Shown here piece by piece: positions 11,657 through 64,000 of a stretch of 64,000 nucleotides of DNA. The stretch comes from an uncultured Verrucomicrobiota bacterium (lineage in GTDB: Bacteria > Verrucomicrobiota > Kiritimatiellia > CAIVKH01): assembly GCA_937873455.1 (NCBI GenBank), contig CALMYG010000034.1, forward strand, positions 25,405 to 89,404, written 5' to 3'. Position 1 is the stretch's first letter; every line of letters begins with the position of its first letter. The position numbers and the translations under genes are program-made. The notes beneath the pieces are model-generated. The model was given only the letters and a program-made list of their open reading frames with translations, did not search any database and had not been told where the DNA came from.

Positions 11657-11677
11657 CGGCTCCCGGGCCGTAAACGG

Positions 11678-11707
11678 AAAGGCGGTGGCAACACCGCCTT
11701 TTTTTAT
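11678..11707 (+). terminator. Rho-independent terminator after metK
   Basis: Stem aaaggcggtg, loop gcaa, stem caccgccttt, followed by a T-run (11701-11706). Confidence 0.75.
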
Positions 11708-11710
11708 AAT

Positions 11711-11833: not shown

Positions 11834-11946
11834 AATTCGGGCCTGCAATCAAAGCTTGACGCGGCGATGGGAATGGTAAAAAAGAACACCTGAAATCGAA
11901 ACCCGGCGAATGAACACCGGGATCAGCCACGGTTAAAGAGCATGTT

Positions 11947-12333: not shown

Positions 12334-12344
12334 TCGCTCCGCCG

Positions 12345-39117: not shown

Positions 39118-39136
39118 CAAACAAAGGAGAATGAGC

Positions 39137-44096: not shown

Positions 44097-44483
44097 TCAC
44101 CAAATCCTGGATAGCCCATACCGTTCGAAGACCGGGTCGCGACTGATGACCGCCCATCCACGCCGTCGCGCTTGCATGATCTGAATCCGGTCGAAGGGAT
44201 CGCCATGATGCCGCTCAAGATCATGCATCATGGCGGCATCGCTCCACTCAATGGCCAACACCTGAAAACCGTTCTCCGCCAACAAGCCGGGAAGATCTTC
44301 ATTCAACCGGTAGGGTAGAATCAGCTTGCCCAGTCCAATTTTAATCGCCGCTTCCCATATTCCCGCGATGGAGATGAAGCATCTCCCGGGCGTCTGGGAC
44401 ATCATCTTCCTGGCGTTCTTTCCAAAATCGCGGCGGCCTTCAAAGAATCCGATCCAGGCATTGGTATCTACGAGATAATTCAT
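44097..44483 (-). CDS. vapC: PIN-domain toxin
   Basis: LVDTNAWI, ISIAGIWEAAIK, HGDPFDRIQIMQA. 4-nt overlap with the antitoxin gene. Confidence 0.85.
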   Translation of the reverse strand: MNYLVDTNAWIGFFEGRRDFGKNARKMMSQTPGRCFISIAGIWEAAIKIGLGKLILPYRLNEDLPGLLAENGFQVLAIEWSDAAMMHDLERHHGDPFDRIQIMQARRRGWAVISRDPVFERYGLSRIW

Positions 44484-44716
44484 TGGTAGTCCCGGAATTC
44501 ATCCAAGGGCGCATCGAAATCCGGGGCCATATAGAATGTCTTGCCCTTGGCGCAACCGAACTTGGCCGTTACCGACGGCATGGCCGGACGCAACTCGGCG
44601 ACCGGCTTTCCGTGACGGGTGATGATGATACTCACGCCCTTCTCCACATCGTCCAGCAGGCGGGAGAGATGCGTCTTCGCTTCAAAAGCCCCTATTTCAT
44701 GCCGATTGGAAATCAT
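44480..44716 (-). CDS. Phd/YefM-type antitoxin
   Basis: 78 aa. AFEAKTHLSRLLDDVEKGVSIIITRHGKPVAEL is typical of Phd/YefM. Confidence 0.8.
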   Translation of the reverse strand: MISNRHEIGAFEAKTHLSRLLDDVEKGVSIIITRHGKPVAELRPAMPSVTAKFGCAKGKTFYMAPDFDAPLDEFRDYQ

Positions 44717-46144: not shown

Positions 46145-49100
46145 TTAAGGGGTAAAATTCCGGGTGGGCGGGTTATACATCACCGGGCGGTTGGTCCAGA
46201 CCAGGGTCGTTCCATGACGGCGGACGATGACCACGGTATCGTCGGGCTCAATGATGTACCCGGAAGCATTTTGCAGCGATCCGGCATGGCGCCAGGTGTT
46301 GTCCGTCGTCCGCCAGAAAATGCGGGCTTTCGGCGCGACCAGCGAGCCGCTGCCCACCACCTGATTCATTTCATTGGTCACCGGCTTATTGCTCAAGATG
46401 CGGATTTCATCCGACTGCCCGACATTGGGGCCGCCACGGAACCCGTTGTTGGTGGTAATGCCCAAGCTGGACAGCGGAATACGTTCCGGCATCTGGTGGC
46501 TCAGGATGTGGTACATCACGTTGGTTGGCGAAGCAGTCGGCGAGGAAATGGCGTGAACCAGTTCCTGGGTCGGCAGGCGACCCACCATGATCAGGGTTTG
46601 CGGGCTGGCGGATACCGGCAACTCAATCAGGAAGCCCTGACCAAGCGGGATGCGTTTGTTGTTCGCGTTGCCGCTACCGCCGACCAGCCAAGTCCAGTTA
46701 CCCGAATTGGCCAGCCAAACCGTCGCGGTCGGGGCGCTACCCATCGCATCGCCACTGCCGCTATTGCCGAACCACGAAATCTTGGTGGCGTTGATAAAGC
46801 CATCCGCCGAAGGCAACAAGTTGGTGCCGAACACATAGGCCAGGGTGCCTTCGGTCTCGTTGGTGGTCGCCGGATCCGGGAAAGCGAACATCGAGTACCA
46901 GTTTTCGCCCGGATGCAATTGCAGCGCCTTGGCCGCGTAGATTTCCGCGCTGGCCAATCGGTTGGCGTTGTTGGTCTCCCAGCGGCCCGGACGGGCCACG
47001 CGGTAGAACCGGTAGGTGGTTCCGGTCAAATTGCCCGGGGCCACCCGGTTCGTGCCGCCGTGGTCCAGCAACGCCGGGCGGTTGGTGTACTGCATGAACT
47101 GCCACTGGTTGGACAAGCTGTTGCGGAAGCCGAGGGAAGACTCGGTAAACAACACATCGTAATCGCGGAAGACATCTTCTTCTTGCGGCCCGGTCCAGCG
47201 CAGCAGCAGGTCGGTGGAGGTCCGGGCCACGCCCTGAGTGACGATGAACCGGTCGGTGTTGCCGATGATGCTAGCCGCCGGCCCAACATTTCCAGCTCCA
47301 TCGCGGCCTTGGATGTGAATGCGGTAATAGGTGTCGAAGACCAGGTTCGACAACACCAAGTTGGTGAAGGCCCAGTTGTTGAGCACATTCGACCAGGTGG
47401 TGTTAGCTCGAGTCAGGGTCGTAGTCACCGCATTGGCCGCCGGGATCCCGTTGGTATCCGTGACTTCATAATAGGTAACGATGAAGGTATCCCACGGCGA
47501 GAGCGGCGTATTATCGGACTGACGCCAACCGGCGGCTTGGGCGACGTTGGTTCCGCCCGGAGTCCATTCGACCTTGATTTCCGAGGATTCGTCGATCGTG
47601 GGGTCGAAGACATTCCCCCCGGCCGCATCGGTAGCCCGCAACGCAGCCACTGGCGGCGGCGGATTCGTATCCACGCGCAGCGCAAAACTCATGGTATTAC
47701 CCATGGACTGGTCGCCCGGGCGATCGTTGTCGTTATCTACCGCATACAAGAACCCGGTGATGATGCCTTGGTGGCCGAGAATACTGGCCGAAGCGCCGGT
47801 CACGCTGGAACCGTGAATATCGCCTTGCCCCATCGCGGGGGCCGCGCTTCCCTGGGCCGGGGCAACCAGGCCGTAGTAAGCAACCCCGGAGAAGTCGTCG
47901 ATGGCCGGCGCCCAGCTCATATGGATGGTGGCATTGGTCAGGGCATTGGTGCCGATCCAGCCGGAGAGTGTGGTCAGGGCCAGATCGTCGACATAAATCT
48001 GCGACCGGCTCACGCCGCTCGGATCTGCGCGGCGAACCCGATACCTCAGACCCGAACCGTCCGTATCGATATTCCAGGAGAACTGCTGGTAGTCGGTGCT
48101 ATCCACGGTAATGGCCGCAGGTTTCCGGGTGGTGAAAACGCTGATGTTATCGTATTGAATATGCCCGTTTAACCCATCGCTGGTGGTGAAATAGAACGCG
48201 ATATTGTTCAAGCTAAGGTTAGTCAGCGCGCTGGTGTCGGTGGCGGTACCCATACTGAGCAGGGATCCGGGGCTCAGGCCCTCGAATACCTGGAGCTGCA
48301 TGTTGCCGCCGGCCAGGCGGGTCAAATCAAACCGCATCGTCCGAGGCCCGATGCCCTGACGCATGGCCGAGAATCCGGTTCCCAGCTCGGTTCCAGAAAA
48401 GAAGGCGTGGTCGTCGATGGTGTTTTCATTCCGCACCAACCGGGTCGCCTCGACGTTGTCCACGCCCAGTTGGGCAAAATAGCCGCGCCAATCCCGGGTC
48501 GGCTGACCCGCGCCCCATTGGTTCCACCCATTCGCGGTGGGGGCCGCGCCTTGAAAGAGTCCGACCCGGACCGAATTGACCTTCTGGCCGGAATTGGTCG
48601 GCAGCTCGTAGGTGAACATCACGGAAACCGTCTCCCCTTCCGCCAGGCTGACCGGTGCAATCTCGGTGGTAAAATATTGATTCAAGGTGGAACTGTTGTT
48701 GTTGGCGATATGATTGGTCGCCGGCGTGGTGGTGATAATGAAGTTGCCGCCGGTAAACCGCCAGGTCGGGTTGGCGGTGAAGTCGCCGTCATCGAACCCT
48801 TCGGCGAGGATGGATCTGCCGTCATAATTGATCCAGTTCACGCCATCCCACTTGTCCAAGGCCAGCGCAGGAGCGCCGGATCCGCCGGAGACGCGTGAAG
48901 CATATAGGGACAAGGCGCCCGGGTTGTCCACCGGCGGTAGTTGAAGGGCAGCGACGGGAAAGTCGTTGGTCAGAAATCCAATGCGCGCCTTGCCGGACAC
49001 CTTGGGATCCAGGGTGGTAAGGGTGACGCCCTGGCCGCGCCATACCCGGTTATCGAAATCGGTATTGGTCCAGATGACGCCGCTGCTGAACGAGGAGGCC

Positions 49101-52100
49101 CAACCCTGATTGGTTTCAAAGCTGGTGGATAGGCTCGCCGACAGATTCCCCTGCACCACGCTCATGGTGGAAAGAACCGGCCCGTTGATGTCATCATCCA
49201 CCACAACCAATTGGCCGACGTGCAGGCTGTGCACGATGGATCGGTCGTTCGGCCGGTCGTTATCAGCGTCGGGAATGGTGACGCGCACCGGATGACCGGT
49301 ACTGCCCGCGCTGGTCATCATTGTATTGATCAAGGCGCCATCGAAATTCCCGAAGGTCCACACGTTGGTCAGGATTTGATTGGTTCCGGTCTGCGGAGTG
49401 GACAGTGCGCTGTTGTAATCCGAGAAATTGCCGACGATGACATTGCCAATACTGAAGCTCATCACCTCATTGGTGGTCCCGCTGTTTCCGCGGGAGACGC
49501 CGGAGTGGGTATCCCGGGCGCTGAAGCGGAACTCCAGCCCCAACGAGGCGGCATTGGCGAGATCGGCATCGGTCACCCGGGTGAGCACATTGGAGGCGCC
49601 ACCGCTGGTGTCGCGGCGGCCCAGGAAACCTCGGATCAGATCGCCGGGCGCGTAGTTGTTCGTGGTCACCGCAAACGGCACATTCAAGCTGGTGCCCGGA
49701 ATGTTGACATTGGGCGCGAAGGGCGCGTTGGTGTCGTTATCAATCACCCGCATCAGGCCGAAGAACCGGTTGCTGACCCAGAGGTTGTCGTTTGCCCGGT
49801 CAAAGTCTGCGTCGGAGAACGAGGCGAAGATCGGCCGGTTGCTCAAGCCGTTGGCGTAGAGATCGCCGATCTGGTTATAGCCGAACGAGGTGAACGACCA
49901 CAGGCTGGTGGAGGTATTCACGGTGGAATCGCCGGAGCTACGCGAAGCCGAATATCGCGCACTGTCGTTGGTGGCAAAACCGGAAATCGAGACATGCATG
50001 TTGGATCCGGCCACGGTTCCGCGCGACAAGCCGCTGATTTCGTCGAAGACGTTGAATGAGAAGGCGAGGGCATTGGCGTCGTTGGTCGCCTGGGCCAGCA
50101 TCCGGTCGGTGACTTCAAAGTAAGTAACCGGCTGGGCGTTAAACTGAACATTGTCGAAACGGTTGTTACCGCCCGAACCACCGCCAAAGGTGATCCGTAC
50201 GGTTACGCTGGTCGCATCGTTGACGGCCGACACCGCACTGAGATCGACGGTCTTTATCGTGTCGTTGGTGGTCGGGTTCCATCCGGTTTCGAAATCAACA
50301 AACCCACCGCCATTCACCGAATAGGCGATGGTGTTGTTGTTATAACCGGCGCCGCTGCGGCGCGCGGCAAAGGTCATCACCAGGGACTGGTAATACTTCA
50401 TGCTGATGGTGAATTGAAGGTGGCGCCCGACGTTGGTGCCGCCCTGGATTGTCCAGTCTTGGCCGGGGATATCGGCGTTGACCAGATTCAGCGAGCTTCC
50501 CGATGTGGTGTTGGTGGTGTACAGATTGGCGGACATGGTGCCGGCGCCATGATTGACTTGGAGCCGGTTGGCGGTGTCGTTGAAATTCCAACCGGCAATC
50601 AACAACGTCGGGTTTGATGTGGCAACCTGGTGGGTGCCGGCGAGAATCTTCAACCCTGCCGCCCCTACTTCCGGCGGGGTGGGATCGTTGTCGATCACGC
50701 GGAGCCAGCCAAAGAAGTCGTTGGTGAAGGCCTGATCGTTGGCCCGGTCGTCGTCGTTGTCGGCGAGGAACGCATTGACCGGCAAGTCCTGACCCTGCGC
50801 ACCCGATCCATCACCGCCCCACATATCGGTGAGGGTGTTGTAGGTGAACAGCGAATTGGCGAAGGACCAGACATTCGATGCGTTTTGATTGGTGCTCACC
50901 GTGGTACTGCGCGAAGCAACGTAATGGCTGATGTTGCTTTCCACCAGCCAGGGGATGGTCACGTTCATGTTGGTGGCAGGGTCGCCGGTATTCGCCCGTT
51001 GCAGCCCGCTGTATTCATCGTAGGCCTTGATCGCGAGGTCCATGCCGTGGGTGGCCAGGTCGCGGTCGGTGATGAGGAATCGACGCACCCCGTCGCCGGC
51101 ATCCTGGCTTTGGGCCGCCTGATTGTTTACCTTGATATTCAGCGGCACATCGCCCCGCACCGGCGGATCGGGATCGTCGTCGTAGACATAGAACCGGAGC
51201 GGATGGTTGATGGTAATGGCCCGGTTGGTCGGCACGGCGTTGCCGCCATTTGGCGCAGTTACCGTTCCGGCGCCAGAGGGCGCGGCCTCAGCGGAAACGG
51301 TCACGAAGTACTGCACTTCAAAATCAATATCTTGAATATTGAAGGCGTTTTGCTGGAAGGTGGTTACCACGCTGAATCCATTGAAGCCGAATCGGTTGTC
51401 GAAGAACCGGTCGAGGTTGAACTCGTTGGTGGTAAGCCCAATCGCCAAGGGGTCCCAGTTGGGGTTCACGCGCCCCAGGTTGGAGCCGATGTTGGTGGTG
51501 CTGGCCGTGTTGTTGGTCAGGAAGATGCCGAAACCGCTGGGGGCATCCCACCGGACGGCGAAGTCGATACCGCTAGCCGACTTCAATTCCGCGTCACTGA
51601 GGTTGGTGATGACCTGGCTGTAGAAGGAAGGTCCGTAATTGGTTCCGATATAGACCAGGCTTGGGGTAGGGCCGAAGTTCTCGTGCCACTGATCGGGCAG
51701 GCTCCACATGGTCTGCTCCCAGCTCGGCGAAATACGAATATGGTCAAAGATCAAGTCCCCGACATTCTGGCCGGCCAGCCGGATGCCGGTGATCTGGGAA
51801 ATGTTGACGTTGGTCAGCACCGTGGTCCAGGCCAATTCCCGGTCGGGATCGGTGTGCAGCAGTTGGTTCTCGGCATAGGCACGCCCTTTCAGCACCTTGG
51901 CGTCAAAGTCGTATTCCATGACGATCAGGTAGGCATCGCCCCCGACCAGCGTCCAGGTCGTATTGGTGTGCAACGCGGAGTTGGTGGCCACGCTGCCGGC
52001 CTGCAAGGTCAGAAGACCACTCGACACGCCCCAGCCTTTACCGAGGAAGCCAACTTCCGTGCTGCCATCCATGAACGACATGCCGGCGAACGCGCTGACG

Positions 52101-55100: not shown

Positions 55101-58100
55101 GTGGAACTCCGGGTAGAATCCCATTGCGTCACGTTGCTGACGATCGCCGATCCTATGGACAAGCTGCTATTGATGTCTGGATTCGTATTGTCGCGGCTCA
55201 GACCCGATCCGGCGTCGCGCGCGCCCAGCCAGAACACCAGGGCATTGCCACCGGACAGGTTGGTCAACGCGGCATCGGTGGTGGTGTAGGTGATGTTGGT
55301 GGAAGAACCCGACCCGGTGGATATCTGGGCCGAACCAAGCGAGATGTGCAGGTTGCGTGATGCGCTGTTGTGCGGCGAGGCAATGGTCTCCAGCGTCGGC
55401 GCAGTTGTATCGTCATCCACCACCGTGAACGCGATCGGGGTGCTGTTGGACAAGACGGCGATGTTGAGGGCGGGCACGCCGTTGGAAGAAATCGCGCTCC
55501 AGCGGCCGGTATAGGAGCCCAGCATCACCGCCGCCTGGGGCACGGTGAAGCCAAAGCTGGTGTTGGAGGCGATCAAGGTCTTGCCGCTATCCTGGTAGGA
55601 CATGGCCGAAAACACCCGGTCGGTGACGATTTCGACACCGTTGGGATTGAGGATATCGAAGTTGGGCAGGAAGAACGGCGGGGTGGTGCTGGAGGAATTG
55701 ACCCCCGCCTCGGCACGAAGGGCGACCATGAACGGGAAGCTGCCGGCGGCGACCTGGCCGTCGAATACGTGGTTGGTGGCGTTCCCGGCGATGTAGTTGG
55801 TCGCCACCACGCCCTGGAGTTTAAGCAGGTCCGACCACGACGATGCCACGCGAATTTCGTCGAAGAACACGTCGCCGATGGTGCCGTCGGGCGCGGCCAC
55901 CGCGCCGGCGTGGATGCGGATGCCATTGACGGAATTGATTTCGTTGACCGGCGCGGTGCTGGTGGCATCCCACGACGAGGGCTCAACCTCGGGTACGGTT
56001 GAGGTGCGGTAGAAGCCCTTGGCATCGAGTTGCCGGGTGTCGAGGTTGTAGCGCATGACCACGAGGTACACGTTGCCGGTGTCGCCAGAACCACCGCCAA
56101 ACGGATTGAATTCAAACGAGGACACATTCTTGGTGATATTCGGGCCGTTGACGCCAAGCCGTCGACCTTCCGTGGCGTCAGACACCTTGCCGGCGAAGGC
56201 CTTCTCGGTGGTATTGGACATGAGCGAGATACCGGCCCACTTGTTCGCGCCCTGGAACTGGTAGGAGATGATTGCCGCGGCGTAAATGGTGCCGGAGTTG
56301 ACCGCCGGGAACGAGCGTTCGGCCCGTCCGGAGAGGCCATCGCCGGGATTGGTCAACCGCACACGGTTGGCCGCCTGGTTCGGATAGGCGGGCATGTTGA
56401 AGAAGCGCGGAACCGCCGGGGAATCCGATCCGAAATTGGTCCGGACGCCCCAGGTCCCCGCACCCACCGACCACGCCCCGCTCCATCCGTTACCGCCGCT
56501 CAATCCGGCCAGCACGTTGACGCCATTGGTGTAGGCAAACGGCTCGATGATCTCAGGACCGTAATTGCCGGTGGTCGCGGTCGCGAGCAGATGCGTCGAG
56601 TAGTGGTTGTTGTTCACGGCATACACCCGGTAATTGTGGGTCTGGCCGGGAGCCACGATGTGTTCGAAGTACGCCGATGACCCCTGATAAATGACCGTCC
56701 CGCCACCGAGCGCGGTAGTGACCGGGTAGGAGGTATTATCGGTCGGATGGGCCGATGGTTCCGCCCCCTCGCGATAGACAATCATCACCGGCAAGGACGA
56801 TCCGATGGTGAGATGTACCGTCTCATTGCCATCCGCCGTCGCGGTAAAGCTGGTGGCCGGAGGAATGTTGGTCACGGTCATGGTGTACACCACATCCACG
56901 GCGCCGTTGGTCTGGTTGCCGGTGATGCGGTTGGTGGCGACATAGGTGCCCGCCGCGATGTTGACCGCGCTGACCGTGCCGGTATGGATGCGACTTGCGC
57001 CGCCGTTGACCGTCCCGCCAGTGGGGGCCACGGTCAGCCAGCCGGAACCACTGCCGTAGGTGGTGGTGTTGGTGTAGAGCAAGGCCGACGAGCCGGTATT
57101 GGTCACGGCAAACGTCGCGGAGGCGGTGTTGCCTTTCATGACCGAGAGGGCGATGTTGGTCGGTCCGACATAAACCGCCGGTTCCGTAGAGACGATGTCC
57201 AATAATTCATAATAGTTCGTGGCAATGCGGACTTCATCCCACCGCATGCCGACATTGCCGCCGAGGCGGATGCGGTTTACCTGGGTCATGGCGCCGGCAT
57301 GCGTCAGTTGCCAAGTTACCGGCTCGATGGCCGGCACGGACTGGGTGGCGTTGGTGTAGAGATTGCCGTACGTGATGTTGGCCCCGAAGTCGTGCATTGC
57401 GATGATCGTGTAGTCAGTATCCGGCAACAGGGTTGCCGTGCCGAGAACGTTGTTACCGATGGTAAAGCCGCGATCCCCGGAGAACGACTCGCCGACGAAC
57501 TTCAATTCGGTGGCGCCGTTGTAGAAGCTGAAGCCGCTCCATTGGGTGGTGTTGCCGCCGTCGTTGCGGAACTTGAAGGACACGTAGAGTTTCCCGGAAT
57601 TGACGTTATTGATGCCGCGGAATGCCTGGGAGTTGGTGCCGACCAGAATGTTGCCGCCCATCGCCGGATAACCGCTCACCTGCGTGAAGTGGGTGGTAGA
57701 GATCGTGTAGTTGCCGGAGGTTACCTCCCAATTGCTGGTCCAGTTGCGCCCGCCGCCGCGGTTATTCAGCGACAACCCGTTCGTGTAGGCGAACTGCTCT
57801 ATGACCAGATTCTGGTAGGCCGGATTGGTCGAGGCACCGGTCACGCCGGTCGAGTAGTGGTTGTTGTTGATCGAATAGAAGGCGTAGTGGTTGATGGTTC
57901 CGGGAATGACCACATGTTCAAAGGTGGCGGCCGCGCCCTTGTAGATGACCCGTGATCCGTCTCCGCCGAAGGCTTCGCCCGCGTTGTAGGATGTTCCATT
58001 GACCGGCACGGACGGCGCATTGGTGGCGCGGTGGATGATCATTACGTCATGCGAGGCATTCTTGGTCCAGAACAAGCGGGTGAACTCCGGCGCCTCGCCC

Positions 58101-61100
58101 TGTACCGTCACCGCCGTCGGGTCGGGAATCGCGGTCAAGGTAAGCTGAACGTTGATGGTCTGCGGCGAGTTGGTCGCGGCGTTTTCGCCGGCGCCGGTCT
58201 GGGTGATGGTGATGGTCGCGTTGCTGACCCCGGCGTGGAGGCCGGCCACGCTGTAGGTCACGGTGTGCGACTGGGTCTGACCGGAGGTGCGGTTGGTCGC
58301 GGTAATCGGCGACACCGACAACCAACTTGCATTGGTGCTGATGACATACGACAAGCTGCTACCACCGACGTTGGTCACCGCAAACGATCCGGCGGACGGG
58401 CTGGTGCCGACAGTGGTCGAGACGGTCAATCCGCTTCCAACACCGATGCCGGGGGCGATGTCGGCGGTGGTGAAGTTGGCCGGATTGCCACTGGCCGTGT
58501 TGGTGTTGTAGTTCACAAACACCGCGCTGGTGTAATACTCATACACCCGGAAGTGATAGGAGGTGTTGGTCTTCAGGCCGGTCACGGTGATCGGGCCGCC
58601 GCCAGTGCCGGCAAATACCACCCAGTTTCCAGTGCCGATTTGACTGCCGCTGCCAAACACGGTGTTGGCGGTGTAGGTGTTGTTGTTCACCGGGTCGGCG
58701 TTGACCGCCGAAGCCTCGCGGGCCACGACCAGGCGGTGCGAGCCGTTGCCGTTGGACCAGTTGATGGTCAGGCTGGTCTGGGTCCGGGACGACAAGGTGA
58801 TCGTGTGGGCCTGGGTGGCCGGCATGGGCGTGAAGGTAAGCACCAGGTTGCCACCGCTAGCGCTCAAGCTGAACACGCCGCCGTTCTTGGCCGAGGCCCA
58901 ACTCGTCTCGTCGAGGGTGAAGTTTGCCGCCGAGGAAATCCCGCCCACAATCAGGTTCCAATTGTACTCGTTCGCCGAGTTCCAGTTACTGATCTGGCTG
59001 GAATCGATGGCCACGGTCACGGTGGCGTTGATGGTGACCGAACCGGCGTTGTTGATGAAGTCGCGGTCGGCGGTGTTCGCAGCGTTGCCGATCTTGAACC
59101 GGGCGGTCGAGCCGTTGTTCATGACCAGCGAGGCGACATCGAGACCGCCGATGGCTGAAGCGCTGTTGCCGGGGGCGACGGTACCACTGACGGTCAACGC
59201 TCCAACCGTGCCATTGCCGCGCAGGGTGGTTCCGGAATAGACGCGGAAGCCAGCGTCAGCCACGGATCCGCTGACCACCACGGTACCGTTGCTGATATTG
59301 AAGTCGCTATTGAAGGTACTCGTGCCGGATAGGGTAAGCGAACCGGCCCCAATCTTGTTGATAATACCGGGTCCACTCAAGGCCCCGGCATAGGTGCCGT
59401 CGGTCGACTGATCAAACACCAGCGTATCCTCGACAGTGATCGCGCCCTGCAAGCTGGTCGTGCTGCCCTGCAAGATGCCTTCGTCGACCACGGTGCCGCC
59501 CGAGTAATTATTAGCCCCGGTCAAGATCACCCGCCCGGAACCCACTTTCATTAGCTCGTAGGCGCCGGAGATCTCGCCGGATAGATTCATGACTCCCAAA
59601 GCGCCGATGGCCGTGTCGGAGGCCAAGCTGATGTTGCCCGAGAAGGTTACTTCGTTGGCGGAGTTGAACAACGCGCCCACGCCGTTAGTTCCTGTGCCGT
59701 TCAGCACCAGGTTTTCGGCATAGGACTGCCCGTTGATCGATGACTCAAGGGTAGCACCAGCTTCCACCACGGTGTTCCCGGCGGTTGTCCCCAATGCATT
59801 GGCATGGCTGAGGCGAATGCCGCCGGCGCTGATGGTGGTCGCTCCGCTGTAGGAGTTGTTACCGGAGAGGGTAATCGTACCGTTGGCCAGTTTAACCACG
59901 GAACCCGTTCCACTGATCACGTCGCTGTGCGTCAAGGCATTTGAGCGATTGAACACCAAAACCGCATTGTTTGTGATCGCACCCGTTATGGCGCCTGCGG
60001 TACTGCCGATGCCGATATGAAGTTCGCCGTCGTCAATTCGAGTGCCCATGTCATAGGTGTTCGCACCGGAGAGGGCCAGAGGAGCCGCCCCCTGCTTGAT
60101 CAAACCGCCATTGGAAATAATGCCGCTGATGATATTGGTCCCGACGGCTAAACTGGTGATCGCGCGCATTTCACCGCCCAGATTCATAGTGCCGCTCATG
60201 GTCATAAGGCCGGAGGCATAACCCAGGGTGAAGTCACCATGCAGAACCGAACGCTTGGGAGTCACGCGACGTGTGCCGCTATTGCCGCGAAGCGTCGTAC
60301 CATCATGGATGTTGATCAAACCGCTGGGCCCAAGGCCATTATTATTGCCGATGATAATCGTTCCATTAACAAGGTTAATTGTTCCGGTCATGGTGTTGGC
60401 GACGCTCAGGGTCAAGTTGCCCGCATTATTTTTATAAATAGCGCCGTCGCCCGTTGCTTTATTTCCGTTGACCAGGACTAGGCTGGGGGTCAATGAACCG
60501 GCGCCGATCAACGATAACGTATTGTTGGCCAAATCAACGGTATTGCTGAAGGTCAGGGTGGCATTCGCGTCCAGATTGACCAAGGTATCCCCGGCCAACG
60601 TAATCGTTCCGCCCAAGGTCCGGTTATTCGCCGTAACGTTGCGCAACGCGCCGCCACTTGACACCCCCGAACCCGAGATCGTCAAGGTTTCGTGAACCGG
60701 CGTAAACGCGCCGCTGAATTCCAAAGCGCCTCCACTGGCGATGATCGTCGCGCCATCAATGGTTCCCAGTCCGTTGGTTTGTTGAATCCTCACGATGCCG
60801 TTATTGATGGTCGTCAACCCGGTATAGCTATTGTTGTTGGTGAGAATGATGCGGCCGGAGCCTTCCTTAACCAAACTCCCCGAGCCGCTGATTACGCCAA
60901 AGAACGACAAATCATCGGCGTTGTTATGGGTCCAGGTCTGATTGGCCCCGAGTACGATGGGGTGGCGAAATACGTGGGCGCCCGATCCGCTGGCGTGGGT
61001 GGTGATGCCGGCGCCTCCGATGGTCAAAGCGCTGGTATTGGTGAAGTTCAGCGCGGTGACCGCCGTATTGAGGAAGTCAAGTCCGCCGACCGAATAGGTG

Positions 61101-64000
61101 GTATTGATGTTGATATTGGTGCCACTGCTGATGGCCTGATAGAACCGGGCGGTGGCGGTGCTGGCCGGCACGGCATTGTCGCTCCAGTTCGCCGTCGTCC
61201 CCCAGTTGCCGTTGGCACCCAGGCCGGCCCAGACCGAGACTACCGTCGCGGCGCGGGTTCCGGCATCGGAGGTGCCGAAATCGCTCATGCTTGCGCTGGT
61301 GTCATTGGTCGCCCGCACCCAGTAGTAATAGGTCACTTCCTGGGTCCCGGTGGTGTCCTCGTAGCTGGTCACATTCGGTCCCAGCGCGGCGCCGCTGATC
61401 AAAGTGGCCCCGGCGGTGTTGTCCACCGTGTTGCGCCACACGGTGTAGCCAGTTTCGCCATTGTTGCTGTCGGTCCAGGTGATGACCACCTTGTCGGCGA
61501 AGGTGCTGTCGGTGGCGCTGACCCCGGCGACGGTGGGGAGGCGGCGGTAACCGGCATCGCTGGCGCTGAACGCGCTCTGGGTCTCCAGGGTGCTGTTGGT
61601 GGCCCGCACCCAGTAGAAATACAACTGACCGGGGTTGGCGGTGGTGTCATCGTAGGTGGTGGTGTTCGCGGCGACCACACCAAGGTAGCTGGCCGAGCCG
61701 GAATTGTCGGTAGTGTTGCGCCAAATGGCAAATCCGGTTTCGCCCGTGACATCCGCCCAAGTCACGGTGACCTTATCGAGATGGGCGCCATCGGTGGCGG
61801 CGACACTGCCCGGCGCGGCCATCTGCCGGAATCCGGAATCGCTGGAACTGAACGCGCTTTGGGTCACCAGCGTGCTGTTGGTGGCGCGAACCCAATAGTA
61901 GTAGAGCGTACCGGCGGTGGCCGTGGTGTCGTTGAAGGTGGTGACGTTGGCCCCCACTGCGCCGACGTAGCTGGCGCTTCCGGAAACGTCGGAGGTGTGC
62001 CGCCAGATGCTGAAGCCGGTTTCGCCGGTGACATCGGCCCAGGTAATCGTCACATGATCAACCGACGTCCCATCGCTGGCCGCGACACTGCCCGGTGCAG
62101 ACAGTCCGCGGTAACCGGAATCACTGGAGCTGAACGCGCTCTGGGTGACCAGCGAGCTGTTGGTGGCCCGCACCCAGTAATAGTACAACGTGCCGGCGAC
62201 GGCGGTGGTGTCGTTGTAGGTCAACACATCCGCGCCCACCGCGCCGACATAAGTCGCCGAGCCTGAACTGTCGGACGTGTGCCGCCAGATGCTGAAGCCG
62301 GTTTCGCCGGCGACATTGCCCCAGGTGATCGTCACATGATCGGCCGAGGTGCCGTCGCTGGCGGCGACACTGGCCGGGGCGGCGAGGTTGCGGAAGCCGG
62401 AATTGCTGCCGCTGAAATCGGACTGGCTGGTGCTGGTGCTGTTGGTGGCGCGCACCCAGTAATAGTACAGAATGCCGGGGTCGGCCGAGGTATCATTGAA
62501 AGTCAAAACATCCGCGCCCACCGCACCGACATAGGTGGCGCTTCCGGAGCTGTCGCTGGTGTGCCGCCAGATGCTGAAGCCGGTTTCGCCGGTGACGTTG
62601 TTCCACGTCACGGTCACATGGGCGGCGGACGATCCATCGCTGGCGGCGACGCCGGTCGGGGCGGCAAGTTTGCGGAAACCGCCGTCGCCGTTGCTGAACG
62701 CGCTCTGGGTCTGCAAGGTGCTGTTGGTGGCGCGCACCCAGTAATAATACTGCTGGCCGGGGGTGGCGCCGGTGTCATTGTAGGTCAATACATCCGCACC
62801 CACCGAGGCGAGGTAGGTGGCGGTTCCGGAATTGTTGGCGGTGTTGCGCCAGATGCCGAAGCCGGTCTCGCCGGCGACATTGCCCCACGATAGGGCGACA
62901 TGGGCTTCTGACGTTCCATCGCTGGCGGTCAGGCTGGCCGGGGCGGTCAGGCCGCGGAAGCCGGAATCACTGGCGCTGAAGTCGGACTGGCTGATGCTGG
63001 TGCTGTTCGTCGCCCGGACCCAATAGTAATACAAGGTGCCGGCGGCAGCCGTGGTATCGTTAAAGGTCAACACATCCGCGCCCACCGCGCCGACGTAGGT
63101 GGCGGAGCCGGGCACATCGGCGGTATGCCGCCAGATGCCGAACCCGGTTTCGCCGGTCACATTGCCCCAGGTTACGGTGACATGGGCATCAGACGTGCCA
63201 TCGCTGGCGGCGACGCTGGCCGGGGCGGCGAGTTTGCGGAAGCCGCTGTCGGAAGCGCTGGGCTCGCTGGCAAACGAAGCATTGGTAGCGGTGATCCAGT
63301 AGTAATAAAGCTGGCCGGGTGTGGCCGAGGTATCGTTGTAGGTCACGGTATTCGCCGCATTGGTGAATATTGCCGAAGCCGAACCGAACGTGTTGGCGGT
63401 ATGCCGCCAGATCAGGTAACCAGTTTCGCCGGCGATGTCGTCCCACGAAAGGGCAACGTGCGCTTCGGATGATCCATCGGAAGCGGACAGCCCGGTCGGG
63501 GCGTCGAGACCGCCGATTAATTGCGACCAGTTGGTAGCTACTCGGATCTGATCAAACAACGCACCGCCGATCCAGTCTTCATTACTGCCCGCCTTGAGGC
63601 GAATGCGATTGATTTGGCCGAGGCTTAACGATCCCCACGTGGCATCCCACGAAGACGGCTCGGAACCCGGGATATTTTCGCTCCGATAAAAGGCCTTAAC
63701 CCGGGCTTGTTGGGCGGCGAAGTCGTATTTCAGGACAATCCAATACCAGTTGTTGGTGCTGTTCTGGTAGGGGTTGATGTTATAAGAGCTGGATGCATTG
63801 GAACCGCCCCTACGAATGCTGAACCTTCGGTTTTCCCCGAACACTTTTCCAAATTCCAGATGCTCGTCGGTACCGTCCATAATGGCGATAGTCGCCCATC
63901 GGCGGGACTGTTCAAACGTCTCTTCGTAGCGGTAGGCGATAAGAGCAGACACATAGATGACGCCACTGTTCACGTTCGGGATACCACGGGTGGCAATACC
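46145..64000 (-). CDS. Giant mosaic surface/adhesin-like protein (more than 5,942 aa; 5' end lies outside the window)
   Basis: Uninterrupted minus-strand frame from 46145 to the window edge. Codons 63974-64000 are also open, and the sequence begins mid-domain. Contents: 8 FN3-like repeats; an autotransporter-associated beta-strand (PATR) repeat region of about 800 aa; 5 jelly-roll modules ending in DE(I/V)R(I/V)A..W..L; Ig-like and FN3-like units; 5 DxDxDR(P/A)xD modules; one DGDxT-NPxW domain; an FYRV domain; and an unassigned tail of about 280 aa. Confidence 0.9.
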   Translation of the reverse strand, partial: GIATRGIPNVNSGVIYVSALIAYRYEETFEQSRRWATIAIMDGTDEHLEFGKVFGENRRFSIRRGGSNASSSYNINPYQNSTNNWYWIVLKYDFAAQQARVKAFYRSENIPGSEPSSWDATWGSLSLGQINRIRLKAGSNEDWIGGALFDQIRVATNWSQLIGGLDAPTGLSASDGSSEAHVALSWDDIAGETGYLIWRHTANTFGSASAIFTNAANTVTYNDTSATPGQLYYYWITATNASFASEPSASDSGFRKLAAPASVAASDGTSDAHVTVTWGNVTGETGFGIWRHTADVPGSATYVGAVGADVLTFNDTTAAAGTLYYYWVRATNSTSISQSDFSASDSGFRGLTAPASLTASDGTSEAHVALSWGNVAGETGFGIWRNTANNSGTATYLASVGADVLTYNDTGATPGQQYYYWVRATNSTLQTQSAFSNGDGGFRKLAAPTGVAASDGSSAAHVTVTWNNVTGETGFSIWRHTSDSSGSATYVGAVGADVLTFNDTSADPGILYYYWVRATNSTSTSQSDFSGSNSGFRNLAAPASVAASDGTSADHVTITWGNVAGETGFSIWRHTSDSSGSATYVGAVGADVLTYNDTTAVAGTLYYYWVRATNSSLVTQSAFSSSDSGYRGLSAPGSVAASDGTSVDHVTITWADVTGETGFSIWRHTSDVSGSASYVGAVGANVTTFNDTTATAGTLYYYWVRATNSTLVTQSAFSSSDSGFRQMAAPGSVAATDGAHLDKVTVTWADVTGETGFAIWRNTTDNSGSASYLGVVAANTTTYDDTTANPGQLYFYWVRATNSTLETQSAFSASDAGYRRLPTVAGVSATDSTFADKVVITWTDSNNGETGYTVWRNTVDNTAGATLISGAALGPNVTSYEDTTGTQEVTYYYWVRATNDTSASMSDFGTSDAGTRAATVVSVWAGLGANGNWGTTANWSDNAVPASTATARFYQAISSGTNININTTYSVGGLDFLNTAVTALNFTNTSALTIGGAGITTHASGSGAHVFRHPIVLGANQTWTHNNADDLSFFGVISGSGSLVKEGSGRIILTNNNSYTGLTTINNGIVRIQQTNGLGTIDGATIIASGGALEFSGAFTPVHETLTISGSGVSSGGALRNVTANNRTLGGTITLAGDTLVNLDANATLTFSNTVDLANNTLSLIGAGSLTPSLVLVNGNKATGDGAIYKNNAGNLTLSVANTMTGTINLVNGTIIIGNNNGLGPSGLINIHDGTTLRGNSGTRRVTPKRSVLHGDFTLGYASGLMTMSGTMNLGGEMRAITSLAVGTNIISGIISNGGLIKQGAAPLALSGANTYDMGTRIDDGELHIGIGSTAGAITGAITNNAVLVFNRSNALTHSDVISGTGSVVKLANGTITLSGNNSYSGATTISAGGIRLSHANALGTTAGNTVVEAGATLESSINGQSYAENLVLNGTGTNGVGALFNSANEVTFSGNISLASDTAIGALGVMNLSGEISGAYELMKVGSGRVILTGANNYSGGTVVDEGILQGSTTSLQGAITVEDTLVFDQSTDGTYAGALSGPGIINKIGAGSLTLSGTSTFNSDFNISNGTVVVSGSVADAGFRVYSGTTLRGNGTVGALTVSGTVAPGNSASAIGGLDVASLVMNNGSTARFKIGNAANTADRDFINNAGSVTINATVTVAIDSSQISNWNSANEYNWNLIVGGISSAANFTLDETSWASAKNGGVFSLSASGGNLVLTFTPMPATQAHTITLSSRTQTSLTINWSNGNGSHRLVVAREASAVNADPVNNNTYTANTVFGSGSQIGTGNWVVFAGTGGGPITVTGLKTNTSYHFRVYEYYTSAVFVNYNTNTASGNPANFTTADIAPGIGVGSGLTVSTTVGTSPSAGSFAVTNVGGSSLSYVISTNASWLSVSPITATNRTSGQTQSHTVTYSVAGLHAGVSNATITITQTGAGENAATNSPQTINVQLTLTAIPDPTAVTVQGEAPEFTRLFWTKNASHDVMIIHRATNAPSVPVNGTSYNAGEAFGGDGSRVIYKGAAATFEHVVIPGTINHYAFYSINNNHYSTGVTGASTNPAYQNLVIEQFAYTNGLSLNNRGGGRNWTSNWEVTSGNYTISTTHFTQVSGYPAMGGNILVGTNSQAFRGINNVNSGKLYVSFKFRNDGGNTTQWSGFSFYNGATELKFVGESFSGDRGFTIGNNVLGTATLLPDTDYTIIAMHDFGANITYGNLYTNATQSVPAIEPVTWQLTHAGAMTQVNRIRLGGNVGMRWDEVRIATNYYELLDIVSTEPAVYVGPTNIALSVMKGNTASATFAVTNTGSSALLYTNTTTYGSGSGWLTVAPTGGTVNGGASRIHTGTVSAVNIAAGTYVATNRITGNQTNGAVDVVYTMTVTNIPPATSFTATADGNETVHLTIGSSLPVMIVYREGAEPSAHPTDNTSYPVTTALGGGTVIYQGSSAYFEHIVAPGQTHNYRVYAVNNNHYSTHLLATATTGNYGPEIIEPFAYTNGVNVLAGLSGGNGWSGAWSVGAGTWGVRTNFGSDSPAVPRFFNMPAYPNQAANRVRLTNPGDGLSGRAERSFPAVNSGTIYAAAIISYQFQGANKWAGISLMSNTTEKAFAGKVSDATEGRRLGVNGPNITKNVSSFEFNPFGGGSGDTGNVYLVVMRYNLDTRQLDAKGFYRTSTVPEVEPSSWDATSTAPVNEINSVNGIRIHAGAVAAPDGTIGDVFFDEIRVASSWSDLLKLQGVVATNYIAGNATNHVFDGQVAAGSFPFMVALRAEAGVNSSSTTPPFFLPNFDILNPNGVEIVTDRVFSAMSYQDSGKTLIASNTSFGFTVPQAAVMLGSYTGRWSAISSNGVPALNIAVLSNSTPIAFTVVDDDTTAPTLETIASPHNSASRNLHISLGSAQISTGSGSSTNITYTTTDAALTNLSGGNALVFWLGARDAGSGLSRDNTNPDINSSLSIGSAIVSNVTQWDSTRSSTFTNTYVASATNAWSWITPMLPAEIESLVLTGTNAVVATWRDADFDRPDDQSTLWNQQHGYLIVNDDDVDPPTIQNFDIRGVTGVNTVTVEELIFSLHWAITGRVHDASGINVNSTNTIQPNISPYFELWDPSGAMQLRQAFNQIPFSNGGATSATRISSSNNTTLVSAPTGIWTARVVVADADLEWPGDRAIGTNTFTFVVVAGDSFAGLEATPTLLTQTSQFGVVSGPTNFTVNNVGLGNLVFSASPSAGWLSASPSSTTVGTGNSTNINVTLNIGSLNPGTYEAVFTLSGNQTNGARYVTNRLTVVGFFASEIVDQFTNAVGSTLNNANSGTGWDGVWAVSGGNYTSHSGSLSVPVNYPAAAGNRMCADTMGTEVLAWRNFPAVTTGKIYAAYAFTRGTPPGNDYTNGYFGIHFFDNNTERVWGGKAGGSTKLGLDSGGFTGGTFDFYNGTYLLVIKYDFDAGDAGVYVRNSGDTMPTNEPSFTLTRSNPGIPRIDRIRISGQNVGTLCIDEVRVARTWANLLNFFENEPTLHASSMSFENITTNSMTVNWVNGNGVARIVVARTNGPVNFTPVDGVTYTANNSFAAGTDLGNGNRIVYNEAGNTVNVSGLNPATRYYFQVFEYNVSGGTPDYLTSGTPLAGDRWTLTTEPDGVPGSFSAIAASDVAISNLWTTASGASGYVIFRRPGAAVTNIPVDGFAFTDNQTIGDVTVRVVTPGSATALLHSSLASCSNYHFRIYAFNQAADPQTINYNLSSGPVADAQTGCGEPSVQASEIVFQNVGTDFIRLSWTLGSGTRSMVLARQGTSITADPVDGLSYTSSSTFASGTQIGTGNYVVYRGTNNVTTVSGLTIGQTYTFKVYTFNGSASSSDYNTNNAANNPRTTATAAFGVASDRFVWNYFGNYANNNLSGAGTGSGWSGNWSTFGGYGAVDDANSPNSFRGYPLDDRSNCGNNCDDSRQLKFVTEASPAFGATRSFATRNSGKIVASVKINIQSSFNVSAFAGMSFMDGSTEVGFLGKGWGVSSGLLTLQAGSVATNSALHTNTTWTLVGGDAYLIVMEYDFDAKVLKGRAYAENQLLHTDPDRELAWTTVLTNVNISQITGIRLAGQNVGDLIFDHIRISPSWEQTMWSLPDQWHENFGPTPSLVYIGTNYGPSFYSQVITNLSDAELKSASGIDFAVRWDAPSGFGIFLTNNTASTTNIGSNLGRVNPNWDPLAIGLTTNEFNLDRFFDNRFGFNGFSVVTTFQQNAFNIQDIDFEVQYFVTVSAEAAPSGAGTVTAPNGGNAVPTNRAITINHPLRFYVYDDDPDPPVRGDVPLNIKVNNQAAQSQDAGDGVRRFLITDRDLATHGMDLAIKAYDEYSGLQRANTGDPATNMNVTIPWLVESNISHYVASRSTTVSTNQNASNVWSFANSLFTYNTLTDMWGGDGSGAQGQDLPVNAFLADNDDDRANDQAFTNDFFGWLRVIDNDPTPPEVGAAGLKILAGTHQVATSNPTLLIAGWNFNDTANRLQVNHGAGTMSANLYTTNTTSGSSLNLVNADIPGQDWTIQGGTNVGRHLQFTISMKYYQSLVMTFAARRSGAGYNNNTIAYSVNGGGFVDFETGWNPTTNDTIKTVDLSAVSAVNDATSVTVRITFGGGSGGNNRFDNVQFNAQPVTYFEVTDRMLAQATNDANALAFSFNVFDEISGLSRGTVAGSNMHVSISGFATNDSARYSASRSSGDSTVNTSTSLWSFTSFGYNQIGDLYANGLSNRPIFASFSDADFDRANDNLWVSNRFFGLMRVIDNDTNAPFAPNVNIPGTSLNVPFAVTTNNYAPGDLIRGFLGRRDTSGGASNVLTRVTDADLANAASLGLEFRFSARDTHSGVSRGNSGTTNEVMSFSIGNVIVGNFSDYNSALSTPQTGTNQILTNVWTFGNFDGALINTMMTSAGSTGHPVRVTIPDADNDRPNDRSIVHSLHVGQLVVVDDDINGPVLSTMSVVQGNLSASLSTSFETNQGWASSFSSGVIWTNTDFDNRVWRGQGVTLTTLDPKVSGKARIGFLTNDFPVAALQLPPVDNPGALSLYASRVSGGSGAPALALDKWDGVNWINYDGRSILAEGFDDGDFTANPTWRFTGGNFIITTTPATNHIANNNSSTLNQYFTTEIAPVSLAEGETVSVMFTYELPTNSGQKVNSVRVGLFQGAAPTANGWNQWGAGQPTRDWRGYFAQLGVDNVEATRLVRNENTIDDHAFFSGTELGTGFSAMRQGIGPRTMRFDLTRLAGGNMQLQVFEGLSPGSLLSMGTATDTSALTNLSLNNIAFYFTTSDGLNGHIQYDNISVFTTRKPAAITVDSTDYQQFSWNIDTDGSGLRYRVRRADPSGVSRSQIYVDDLALTTLSGWIGTNALTNATIHMSWAPAIDDFSGVAYYGLVAPAQGSAAPAMGQGDIHGSSVTGASASILGHQGIITGFLYAVDNDNDRPGDQSMGNTMSFALRVDTNPPPPVAALRATDAAGGNVFDPTIDESSEIKVEWTPGGTNVAQAAGWRQSDNTPLSPWDTFIVTYYEVTDTNGIPAANAVTTTLTRANTTWSNVLNNWAFTNLVLSNLVFDTYYRIHIQGRDGAGNVGPAASIIGNTDRFIVTQGVARTSTDLLLRWTGPQEEDVFRDYDVLFTESSLGFRNSLSNQWQFMQYTNRPALLDHGGTNRVAPGNLTGTTYRFYRVARPGRWETNNANRLASAEIYAAKALQLHPGENWYSMFAFPDPATTNETEGTLAYVFGTNLLPSADGFINATKISWFGNSGSGDAMGSAPTATVWLANSGNWTWLVGGSGNANNKRIPLGQGFLIELPVSASPQTLIMVGRLPTQELVHAISSPTASPTNVMYHILSHQMPERIPLSSLGITTNNGFRGGPNVGQSDEIRILSNKPVTNEMNQVVGSGSLVAPKARIFWRTTDNTWRHAGSLQNASGYIIEPDDTVVIVRRHGTTLVWTNRPVMYNPPTRNFTP
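48135..48815 (-). other. Fourth copy of the 'DGDRT-NPAW' domain, embedded in the giant protein
   Basis: GFDDGDFTANPTWRF..., [78 protein letters not shown]. These blocks are colinear with the three proteins at 34.5-39.9 kb. Confidence 0.8.
58840..61250 (-). other. Beta-helix-like region built from autotransporter-associated beta-strand (PATR, PF12951-like) repeats within the giant protein
   Basis: Repeated G.G.L.K.G.G...L.G.N.Y(T/S)G.T.(I/V)..G.L units, for example GSGSLVKEGSGRIILTNNNSYTGLTTINNGIV, VKLANGTITLSGNNSYSGATTISAGGI, LMKVGSGRVILTGANNYSGGTVVDEGIL. Confidence 0.75.
61250..63508 (-). repeat. Eight tandem 282-bp (94-aa) FN3-like coding repeats inside the giant gene
   Basis: The landmark ccagatgc(t/c)gaa(g/c)ccgg recurs at 62003, 62285, 62567, 62849 and 63131, with diverged copies at 61436, 61721 and 63407. 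Protein unit: A.P..(V/L).A(S/T)DG.S..HV.(V/L/I).W..V.GETG(F/Y).IWR(H/N)T...SG(S/T)A.Y...V.........DT.A..G.LYYYWVRATNS....QS.FS.SD.G(F/Y)R. Confidence 0.9.

Follow-up and report, generated by a model that had tools for sequence, protein, structure and literature searches.

In the Planctomycetota–Verrucomicrobiota–Chlamydiota (PVC) phyla, proteins ≥5,000 aa long are common, and many of them have been connected with adhesion (bioRxiv 10.1101/2023.11.21.568195). The described proteins closest to the one studied here are the giant adhesins of type I secretion systems (T1SS), the classical type Va autotransporters and the giant extracellular proteins of Omnitrophota and of Apilactobacillus kunkeei. 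For giant adhesins built of beta-sandwich repeats, the available part of PMC7493085 describes calcium-binding linkers that extend the binding domains, and the available part of PMC10880615 counts polysaccharide degraders of anoxic marine habitats among the Kiritimatiellia. Here, we analysed a 64,000-nt stretch of DNA from an uncultured bacterium of this lineage (GCA_937873455.1, contig CALMYG010000034.1, positions 25,405–89,404; referred to as the window), one end of which is taken up by the 3′ part of a giant minus-strand gene.

We found that this part makes up four-fifths of one real, intact 21.9-kb gene, and that its product is a string of more than 40 modules, all-beta, repeat-rich and adhesin-like. 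Judged by shared modules, the protein belongs to a coherent, undescribed family of giants (3,000–7,600 aa) from metagenome-derived genomes of Kiritimatiellia and Verrucomicrobiota. Giant surface-type proteins as such are already known; new here are the family with its own domains and a candidate C-terminal signal of unrecognised type. We read the protein as a Sec-exported, multivalent and adhesin-like fibre at the cell surface, an interpretation to which we assign a probability of about 0.55.

One intact gene of 21.9 kb

On the minus strand, a single frame runs without a stop from position 64000 to 46148 (5,951 sense codons) and ends with a TAA at 46145–46147. The chance of a stop-free run of this length is ∼1e-81 at 61% GC, and the GC content at third codon positions (0.78) is similar to that of the adjoining genes. 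An earlier note, made from the sequence alone, had described the frame as uninterrupted up to the window edge and longer than 5,942 codons, a figure that matches the open reading frame (ORF) called mechanically from the first start codon inside the window (46145–63973, 5,942 aa). Long plus-strand ORFs in the same region were discarded as shadow frames, as their GC excess lies at codon position 1 and not at position 3. Scans of the 64-kb window with Rfam and for tRNAs found no RNA genes.

An exhaustive search with one internal module retrieved a 7,013-aa protein (P0009) that is 100% identical to residues 1–5669 of the window protein and carries 1,344 further residues at its N-terminus (residue numbers are those of the window throughout; adding 1,344 gives the full-length numbering). 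Its mate in the same cluster, P0157, is the full-length product of 7,295 aa (1,344 + 5,951), with the same C-terminus as in the window. As the earlier note had anticipated, the true N-terminus thus lies beyond the window, and it begins with a signal-peptide-like segment. The identical, intact 7,295-aa ORF is present in two independent assemblies (loci L005 and L006), namely NCBI GCA_035324135.1, contig DAOLCH010000001.1, and ENA ERZ794913, NODE_27, for which the contig name gives 107× coverage.

The tandem FN3 array, the numerous paralogous modules within the gene and the frameshifts close to the 3′ end of a related copy in a metagenome-assembled genome (MAG; locus L002) could all be taken to suggest an assembly artefact, with repeats collapsed or chimeric, or a decaying pseudogene. 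The units of the FN3 array, for which Tandem Repeats Finder gives a period of 282 nt, are at most 80% identical in DNA, however, and the longest exact word they have in common is 39 nt. Since the identical ORF was also recovered from two assemblies, a pseudogene, a split gene or a repeat collapse is very unlikely. Furthermore, the 21.9 kb of intact ORF show strong codon bias, and intact full-length orthologues, collinear with the window protein, are known. We therefore regard an artefact or pseudogene as already largely refuted and give it next to no weight, which leaves one giant gene, not several.

Architecture of the giant protein

Among the modules of the protein (Table 1), the PATR, FN3, BACON_2 and ASH/HYDIN-type Ig domains score over their Pfam cut-offs. 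The eight FN3 units are 45–80% identical to each other. In the second PATR beta-helix, the repeats are far over cut-off between ∼aa 1040 and 1600 (PF12951, 49 and 77 bits with a cut-off of 27; TIGR02601, 65 and 79 bits), and the first helix lies within the upstream 800 aa. By Pfam and internal homology, the sets that follow resolve into repeats of BACON_2, FN3-like and jelly-roll modules, with BACON_2 at 39.5 and 40.7 bits (cut-off 25) and additional matches to fn3 and Pur_ac_phosph_N. In a self-comparison, the first jelly-roll module (JR1) was paralogous to aa 2126–2254, 2558–2714, 3345–3470 and 3942–4086. The motif D.D.DR..D occurs exactly five times (aa 3008, 4414, 4730, 4911 and 5422), each occurrence marking what we call a D-module, an acidic unit in which this loop is joined by a DDDxxxP linker. 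Insert A is present in only seven relatives, and the region at 46991..48118 is conserved in 37–40 of them, with an invariant RFYR and a Pfam fn3 match of 26 bits. Most of this architecture had been read by eye in the earlier note, and the eight FN3-like repeats, the PATR beta-helix, the repeated Ig-like/FN3-like/jelly-roll sets, the five DxDxDR(P/A)xD modules and, further towards the C-terminus, the DGD-NPxW domain, the FYRV motif and the tail were all recovered where it had located them.

Table 1. The giant gene, its modules and the related genes of the window. Strands are given in brackets; residues are numbered from the window edge.
Feature	Position (strand)	Residues	Remarks
Giant gene, 3′ part	46145..64000 (-)		17.86 kb, i.e. 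5,951 codons plus stop of a 21,888-nt gene; first 1,344 codons past the window edge
Segment upstream of the window			N to C: signal-peptide-like segment; PATR beta-helix 1; two ASH/HYDIN-type Ig; BACON_2; FN3-like; start of JR1
JR1, C-terminal two-thirds	63515..64000 (-)	1–162	Jelly-roll label; pattern ...GGxGW..W ... FDEIRVAxxW..L; family-specific
FN3 repeats	61253..63511 (-)	164–916	Eight in tandem, 94 aa each; Pfam fn3 and Ig_J_second over cut-off
PATR beta-helix 2	58826..61252 (-)	917–1725	Autotransporter-associated beta-strand repeat; second of two in the full protein
Repeated FN3 / BACON_2 / FN3-like / jelly-roll sets	51701..58822 (-)	1727–4100	Interrupted by U1, D-module 1 and U1′
JR2	57191-57823 (-)
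JR3	55811-56563 (-)
U1		2730–2865	Related to U1′, on the other side of D-module 1; block aa 2730–3180
D-module 1	54866..55399 (-)	2868–3045	Motifs D..SGL.R ... DxDxDRxxD ... V.DDDxxxP
U1′		3045–3180	Related to U1
JR4	53516-54163 (-)
JR5	51701-52423 (-)
U2 to D-module 4	49157..51703 (-)		U2, aa 4100–4280; D-module 2, aa 4280–4450; insert A, aa 4450–4612; D-module 3, aa 4612–4767; D-module 4, aa 4766–4948
Insert B	48833-49153 (-)	4950–5056	Precedes the DGD-NPxW module
DGD-NPxW module	48119..48832 (-)	5057–5294
Conserved C-terminal region, start	46991..48118 (-)		Variant D-module 5, aa 5295–5470; FN3-like, aa 5470–5580; FYRV beta-sandwich, aa 5580–5670
Family-defining C-terminal domain (CTD)	46148..46993 (-)	5670–5951	282 aa; ends WTNxxxY[TS]xP[TG][KR]N[FMI]xP-COOH
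Small TSP3 companion gene	45084..46142 (-)		Begins 2 nt past the stop of the giant gene; secreted protein of ∼270 aa
Stand-alone DGD-NPxW paralogues	38143-39117 (+) and 39074-39946 (+)		Adjoin galT/galK; no Pfam hit

Searched as a whole against PDB sequences, the in-window protein matched with one FN3 domain only, and its more distinctive modules proved difficult to place. A profile of 34 jelly-roll modules gave CIP1 (3zyp) as its best PDB match, at an E-value of 0.37 and spanning the terminal ‘FDxIxvA’ strand only, which fits a ConA-like sandwich but is no proof of one. None of the 34 members had a Pfam match to LamG/Laminin_G, and no Pfam family recurred among them. The partial jelly roll noted previously at the window edge is thus a real module with four internal paralogues, but its fold label has no Pfam or PDB match behind it. 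Likewise, the two inserts described as carbohydrate-binding module (CBM)-like exist, but nothing supports their identity as CBMs. The D-module profile (24 sequences) had no PDB match at E <0.5, and its members showed no consistent Pfam family; acidic motifs stand at the module ends, and the invariant acidic positions (D141, D143, R146, D149 and D165/D167) would suit a metal site but are no proof of one. The terms ‘jelly roll’, ‘CBM-like’ and ‘calcium-binding’ accordingly express a resemblance only.

No catalytic family was matched in all 7,295 residues (Pfam, NCBIfam), in line with the earlier failure to recognise an enzyme active-site motif. This bears on the idea that the protein is a weapon or a device for predation that damages other cells on contact, as proposed for Omnitrophota, where a connection of giant proteins with cell contact and the degradation of cell walls has been drawn (bioRxiv 10.1101/2023.11.21.568195). 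In the protein analysed here, the searches over the same 7,295 residues detected neither a peptidase nor a lysozyme, nuclease, toxin or dockerin domain. In addition, the rest of the window encodes sugar catabolism, and the little known on Kiritimatiellia points to polysaccharide degradation, as far as the available part of PMC10880615 goes. A weapon is therefore improbable.

An undescribed family of giants

Word-indexed homologue searches remained shallow and returned 2–7 mostly fragmentary relatives, even with a profile. When 1.84 billion representative proteins were searched exhaustively with JR3 (251 aa), 144 matched, most of them 2,000–8,000 aa long and often with several copies each. Using profiles built in this analysis, we found the CTD at the extreme C-terminus of at least 47 representative clusters of proteins >3,000 aa (clusters defined at 50% identity). 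These contain 1–6 jelly-roll modules and 0–11 D-modules each; 43 of the 47 start with Met, and the other four with L, L, V or G. The window protein falls within this family, with the CTD and tail, five jelly-roll modules, five D-modules, more than 3,000 aa and a signal-like N-terminus. By a crude hydrophobic-segment test, an N-terminal hydrophobic segment was present in 28 of 44 family members. In the source databases, the few relatives with a name are called ‘hypothetical protein’, ‘autotransporter-associated beta strand repeat-containing protein’ or ‘fibronectin type III domain-containing protein’, and they come from Kiritimatiellia or Verrucomicrobia MAGs. In our searches, at least four domain types conserved in the family had no Pfam or PDB counterpart, and most modules matched no characterised domain.

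Several relatives are collinear with the window protein over long distances. The Kiritimatiellia MAG JAMLJG010000001 encodes two tandem giant paralogues, one of which aligns with aa 1722–4444 at 53% identity, and P0011 is collinear at 60% identity across 3,424 residues. Two giant family genes also lie ∼5 kb apart on a metagenome contig. At L002 (∼11250–12500), the upstream giant paralogue of the Kiritimatiellia MAG and its small companion are both frameshifted near the giant's 3′ end, with an intact downstream copy at L001. The frameshifts could stem from the decay of a tandem duplicate or from misassembly of the MAG over near-identical sequence.

The C-terminal domain and its tail motif

For the family-defining CTD, we built an alignment of 35 sequences with the window protein as its first row. 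The AlphaFold2 model obtained with it is all-beta, with 18 short strands, a predicted local distance difference test (pLDDT) score of 87 and a predicted template modelling score of 0.83; confidence drops over the last ∼13 residues. A model of the last 662 residues (aa 5290–5951) from eight sequences reached a pLDDT of 41 and was not used for fold searches. When PDB and BFVD were searched with the CTD model, Foldseek returned nothing at E ≤1e-3, and the CTD profile had no sequence match in PDB. The top Foldseek matches (tandem CUB, capsid jelly rolls and a phage ‘hemin binding protein’ with a TM-score of 0.39) were judged not meaningful. The model does not have the form of a membrane or outer-membrane barrel, and no barrel was found among the Foldseek neighbours. 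Scanning metagenomes with the single CTD sequence returned one locus.

The last residues of the protein are conserved at a fixed distance from the C-terminus. In 59 clusters, we observed Y at −10 in 50, P at −7 in 53, K or R at −5 in 51, a hydrophobic residue at −3 in 52 and P at −1 in 48. No NCBIfam sorting-signal model matched the CTD tail. Conservation of a motif at a free C-terminus suggests recognition by a partner. It is a tentative possibility that the CTD, with its probably flexible tail, is an undescribed C-terminal sorting, secretion or anchoring signal for the giants of Kiritimatiellia and Verrucomicrobiota, recognised by some machine, with the jelly-roll and D-modules as new binding and extender folds.

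Export and comparison with known secretion systems

The full-length N-terminus resembles a signal peptide (KFGAVITIFAFTFILLPLGALA/QQ), and on this basis the protein is probably exported via the Sec pathway. Beyond the window, where the giant gene has its 5′ end (L005 10078–10135) and directly upstream of the signal-peptide coding part, stand two copies of the palindrome TTCCAA-N3-TTGGAA, ∼17–20 nt apart, whose read-through peptides are FQTLE and SKHWK. A second such pair is located in the window at 4325–4339 and 4357–4371, in the annotated 5′ extension of a DAHP synthase gene (4222–5196); these are two exact matches in the window versus 0.01 expected. Several giant relatives, too, have similar peptides (FQGLE, FQWLE, SNHWK and SKHWN) in their N-termini as called. 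The palindrome pairs may thus be a conserved DNA or RNA element, and the start codons seem to have been called too far upstream.

Type Va autotransporters such as ShdA share with the giant protein an N-terminal signal peptide and long PATR/TIGR02601 regions of the right-handed beta-helix type. In the case of ShdA, NCBIfam aligned aa ∼1037–1688 to the passenger only (model positions 695–1153). Unlike these proteins, the giant has no C-terminal 12-stranded translocator barrel, and its two PATR regions stand among unrelated modules in a chain of 7,295 aa, ∼3–7 times the length of typical autotransporters. Indeed, neither PF03797 nor an NCBIfam barrel matched the last 1,150 aa at E ≤0.1. We therefore rejected a classical autotransporter, despite the Sec-like N-terminus and the PATR passenger. 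Of the argument previously built on PATR repeats as marks of passenger-like helices in very large surface proteins, the repeats themselves are real, but with the barrel absent they do not make the protein an autotransporter.

The likeness to the giant T1SS adhesins (SiiE, LapA/RTX proteins such as MpIBP) lies in the size class, the runs of beta-sandwich spacers, the acidic junction motifs recalling calcium linkers and the placement of ligand-binding modules near one end, as these adhesins are described in the available parts of PMC6272769 and PMC7493085. In contrast to them, the giant has a Sec-type N-terminus, not a single GGxGxD and no RTX/HemolysinCabind Pfam match. ABC transporter, membrane fusion and TolC-like genes were absent within 10 kb on either side in L005 and L006, and likewise in L007 and L008. 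An adhesin of the RTX or LapA/SiiE type was rejected on these grounds.

PEP-CTERM/exosortase substrates also have a strongly conserved motif at a fixed C-terminal distance, and in the same genome a PEP-CTERM signal is present on a protein paralogous to one module of the giant. The tail of the giant differs in that it has no transmembrane helix or basic cluster and ends right after a folded 270-aa domain, with ...P[TG][KR]N[FMI]xP-COOH. We rejected a PEP-CTERM substrate, the C-terminus reading ...WTNRPVMYNPPTRNFTP and no hydrophobic stretch of ≥15 residues being present in the window part. Cargo of the type IX secretion system was rejected with no match to TIGR04183/PF18962 in the last 551 aa (Pfam, NCBIfam), and a sortase substrate with no LPxTG in the sequence. 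The very large genes of Omnitrophota (bioRxiv 10.1101/2023.11.21.568195) and Giant1–5 of A. kunkeei (PMC12863079) likewise encode giant extracellular multi-domain proteins, often tandem paralogues, with a proposed role in surface contact. They belong to other taxa, however, and the jelly-roll module, the D-module and the CTD are specific to the Kiritimatiellia-type family; lytic or dockerin domains are absent from the giant studied here.

The protein could also be released into the medium or a biofilm as an extracellular matrix or aggregation protein, in which the CTD would direct secretion or self-association. A membrane anchor, a lipobox and a sortase-type signal are all absent, and the conserved free C-terminal tail could be a signal for an export machine. 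Moreover, the 5,951 in-window residues include only six cysteines and are richest in T, G, A, S and N, a composition like that of secreted beta-rich proteins. On the other hand, the signal peptide points to a two-step route, and no dedicated transporter genes adjoin the giant gene in the loci examined. The data do not separate release from retention, and we consider a released matrix protein unlikely.

A probable multivalent surface fibre

In our preferred reading of the giant as an adhesin-like surface fibre, the spacer modules (FN3, BACON, Ig) would project multiple binding modules away from the cell as an extended fibre, with D-modules that may be stiffened by calcium. The binding modules would provide multivalent attachment to polymers, particles or other surfaces, and the CTD and tail would serve retention at, or delivery to, the cell surface. 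The reading is modelled on the giant repeat adhesins, in which calcium-loaded linkers hold binding domains out from the cell (PMC7493085, PMC6272769), and on the general tie of giant PVC proteins to surface contact (bioRxiv 10.1101/2023.11.21.568195).

Three observations weigh against this reading. Neither for the putative binding modules (jelly-roll, DGD-NPxW and the inserts) nor for the putative calcium modules was a relative with a known function detected, so that ‘binding’ and ‘calcium-stiffened’ are terms taken from motif resemblance. Furthermore, the searches recognised no outer-membrane translocation or anchoring device, which makes surface exposure an assumption and leaves room for a periplasmic or a fully released protein. 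Finally, the neighbourhoods of the loci examined contain no conserved secretion partner. The earlier note had proposed a multivalent glycan- or particle-binding adhesin. Its giant, exported, adhesin-like mosaic is borne out by the signal-like N-terminus, the all-beta modules and the lack of a catalytic match, but glycan binding is not, BACON_2 domains being the only carbohydrate-flavoured matches.

A companion gene and a recurrent C-terminal tag

The small gene that follows the giant gene encodes a protein with TSP3 calcium-binding repeats (Pfam TSP3_bac, 51–53 bits) and a C-terminal sandwich ending in HFRVVLVE. From its position, the companion is probably co-transcribed with the giant gene. 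A homologue with 44% identity follows both giant paralogues of the Kiritimatiellia MAG (L001 and L002), and none was found at L003, L004, L007, L008 or L009. As the giant gene is followed by such a gene only here and in that one MAG, not at the other five loci examined, the companion is lineage-restricted, and we rejected it as a family-wide partner.

At the 5′ end of the companion ORF (45084–46142), positions 45925–46071 (-) consist of a 60-bp unit repeated 2.5 times at 95% identity. Each unit contains two GC-rich hairpins, GCCGCGCCC-GTT-GGGCGCGG and GCCGCCC-N7-GGGCGGC, with an RNA fold of −110.9 kcal/mol (z −4.3). At 20 codons per unit, the array keeps the reading frame between the annotated ATG of the companion and its signal peptide, and the motif occurs nowhere else in the window. 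The L001 homologue starts directly with MRN and the signal peptide. Because the array stands in frame ahead of the signal peptide and is missing from the L001 homologue, it looks like a repetitive extragenic palindrome (REP)-like insertion between the giant gene and its companion, which may affect the start of the companion or its translational coupling.

TSP3 repeats with a C-terminal module of the FYRV type were also observed on unrelated secreted proteins, at 135–3203 (+) and 45084–46142 (-) of the window, L001 11734–12498, L003 2413–4359, L008 ∼2000–2455 and L009 2423–5449 (-). Among the carriers are the small companion protein, two proteins of 648 and 1,009 aa and an amylase/CBM48/P-domain enzyme. 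The TSP3 part (DxDxDGxxD...AGTDP) is followed by a sandwich of ∼80–90 aa, W...G..Y...W...[FY][YF]R[VI], a few residues before the stop; Pfam covers the TSP3 part only. The combination looks like a recurrent C-terminal tag of secreted proteins of Kiritimatiellia.

This tag raises the question of whether the giant is a structural or organising scaffold, i.e. an envelope, sheath, S-layer-like or cellulosome-like platform holding secreted proteins, for which the TSP3- and FYRV-tagged enzymes would be candidates. The internal FYRV sandwich of the giant is weakly similar to the tag of the companion and of the secreted amylase-like enzyme (hhalign probability 41%, P 3e-4), tag-bearing genes adjoin giant genes in L003, L008 and L009, and NCBIfam gives a weak match to a ‘putative S-layer protein’ model (E 0.026, far under the cut-off). 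The tag similarity is not significant by itself, however, and tag-bearing genes appear to be common in these genomes, so that adjacency may be due to chance. In addition, no cohesin/dockerin-type pair was detected with Pfam, and a genome often has multiple divergent paralogues, a pattern more in keeping with binding proteins that vary than with one structural layer. A scaffold is therefore doubtful, and we retain the adhesin-like surface fibre.

Neighbourhood of the giant gene

The earlier note had assigned the giant gene to the same functional neighbourhood as a polysaccharide island, which comprises sulfatases, GH74-like BNR proteins, GH94, GH3, GH1, an MFS transporter, an AraC regulator and galK/galT. 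This assignment is not borne out: the gene context is not conserved in relatives, and a toxin–antitoxin pair separates the gene from the island. In relatives, the giant gene adjoins either TPR proteins, pantoate ligase and cytochromes or a PKD protein and another giant gene. Here, a Y1 transposase and arginine-biosynthesis genes lie upstream, and the small TSP3 gene and a Phd/PIN pair downstream. The latter (44097–44716 (-)) encodes a PhdYeFM antitoxin and a PIN toxin of 78 and 128 aa and stands between the small TSP3 gene and the galK/galT block. The transposase (IS200/IS605-type or REP-associated) is encoded outside the window, at L005 8319–9308, which is ∼690 nt upstream of the giant gene. 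With these two on either side, the giant gene lies between elements of a kind usual in mobile DNA.

Immediately upstream of the giant gene and on the same strand, L007 (2978–5437) and L008 (3373–5535) encode homologous proteins of 720–819 aa with an N-terminal membrane segment, the SGNH-like motif VLGESAAxGFP and TPR repeats (27% identity over 620 aa, E 1e-49). This protein was rejected as a conserved neighbour, being found in L007 and L008 only, with no counterpart within 10 kb of the window's gene. Inside the sugar-utilisation island, the ORF at 30956–31615 (-) encodes a DUF1559-type protein with a prepilin-type N-methylation motif. DUF1559-type proteins are a pseudopilin-like family abundant in PVC bacteria, which made this ORF one pointer to the PVC origin of the window.

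Domain traffic between the island and the giant gene

Only the DGD-NPxW module positively connects the giant gene with the sugar-utilisation island. It is 45% identical to the product of ORF 38143–39117 (E 5e-57) and 42% identical to that of ORF 39074–39946 (E 9e-51). Both of these stand-alone paralogues have signal peptides, and the second ends in a PEP-CTERM-like VPEP, transmembrane segment and RRK anchor. A DGD-NPxW profile of three sequences found nothing credible in PDB, and a metagenome scan for the module was also empty. In the orthologues L002 and P0011, the module is missing, the alignments skipping from aa ∼5060 to ∼5300, and the only match among relatives is P0009, i.e. the same protein. 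The module is therefore a lineage-specific insertion. By these comparisons, module content is reshuffled between lineages, in this case by the gain of a module shared with two small adjoining secreted proteins.

Implications for Kiritimatiellia

The locus shows domain traffic, with one module common to small PEP-CTERM proteins and the giant protein. Of the new domains of the family, the CTD models at high confidence yet has no structural neighbour in PDB or BFVD. If the giant is simply another adhesin, the result is a useful annotation and no surprise. If the CTD and tail do act as a signal for sorting, secretion or anchoring, they would open a new way of placing proteins of 3,000–7,600 aa on a diderm surface. 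The tail motif offers a handle on how diderm PVC bacteria export or anchor proteins of >7,000 residues without known systems. For the contact of Kiritimatiellia with particles, the giant family provides a candidate mechanism. As a coherent family of giant exported proteins with at least 47 clusters, it may be the main surface-contact device of these bacteria.

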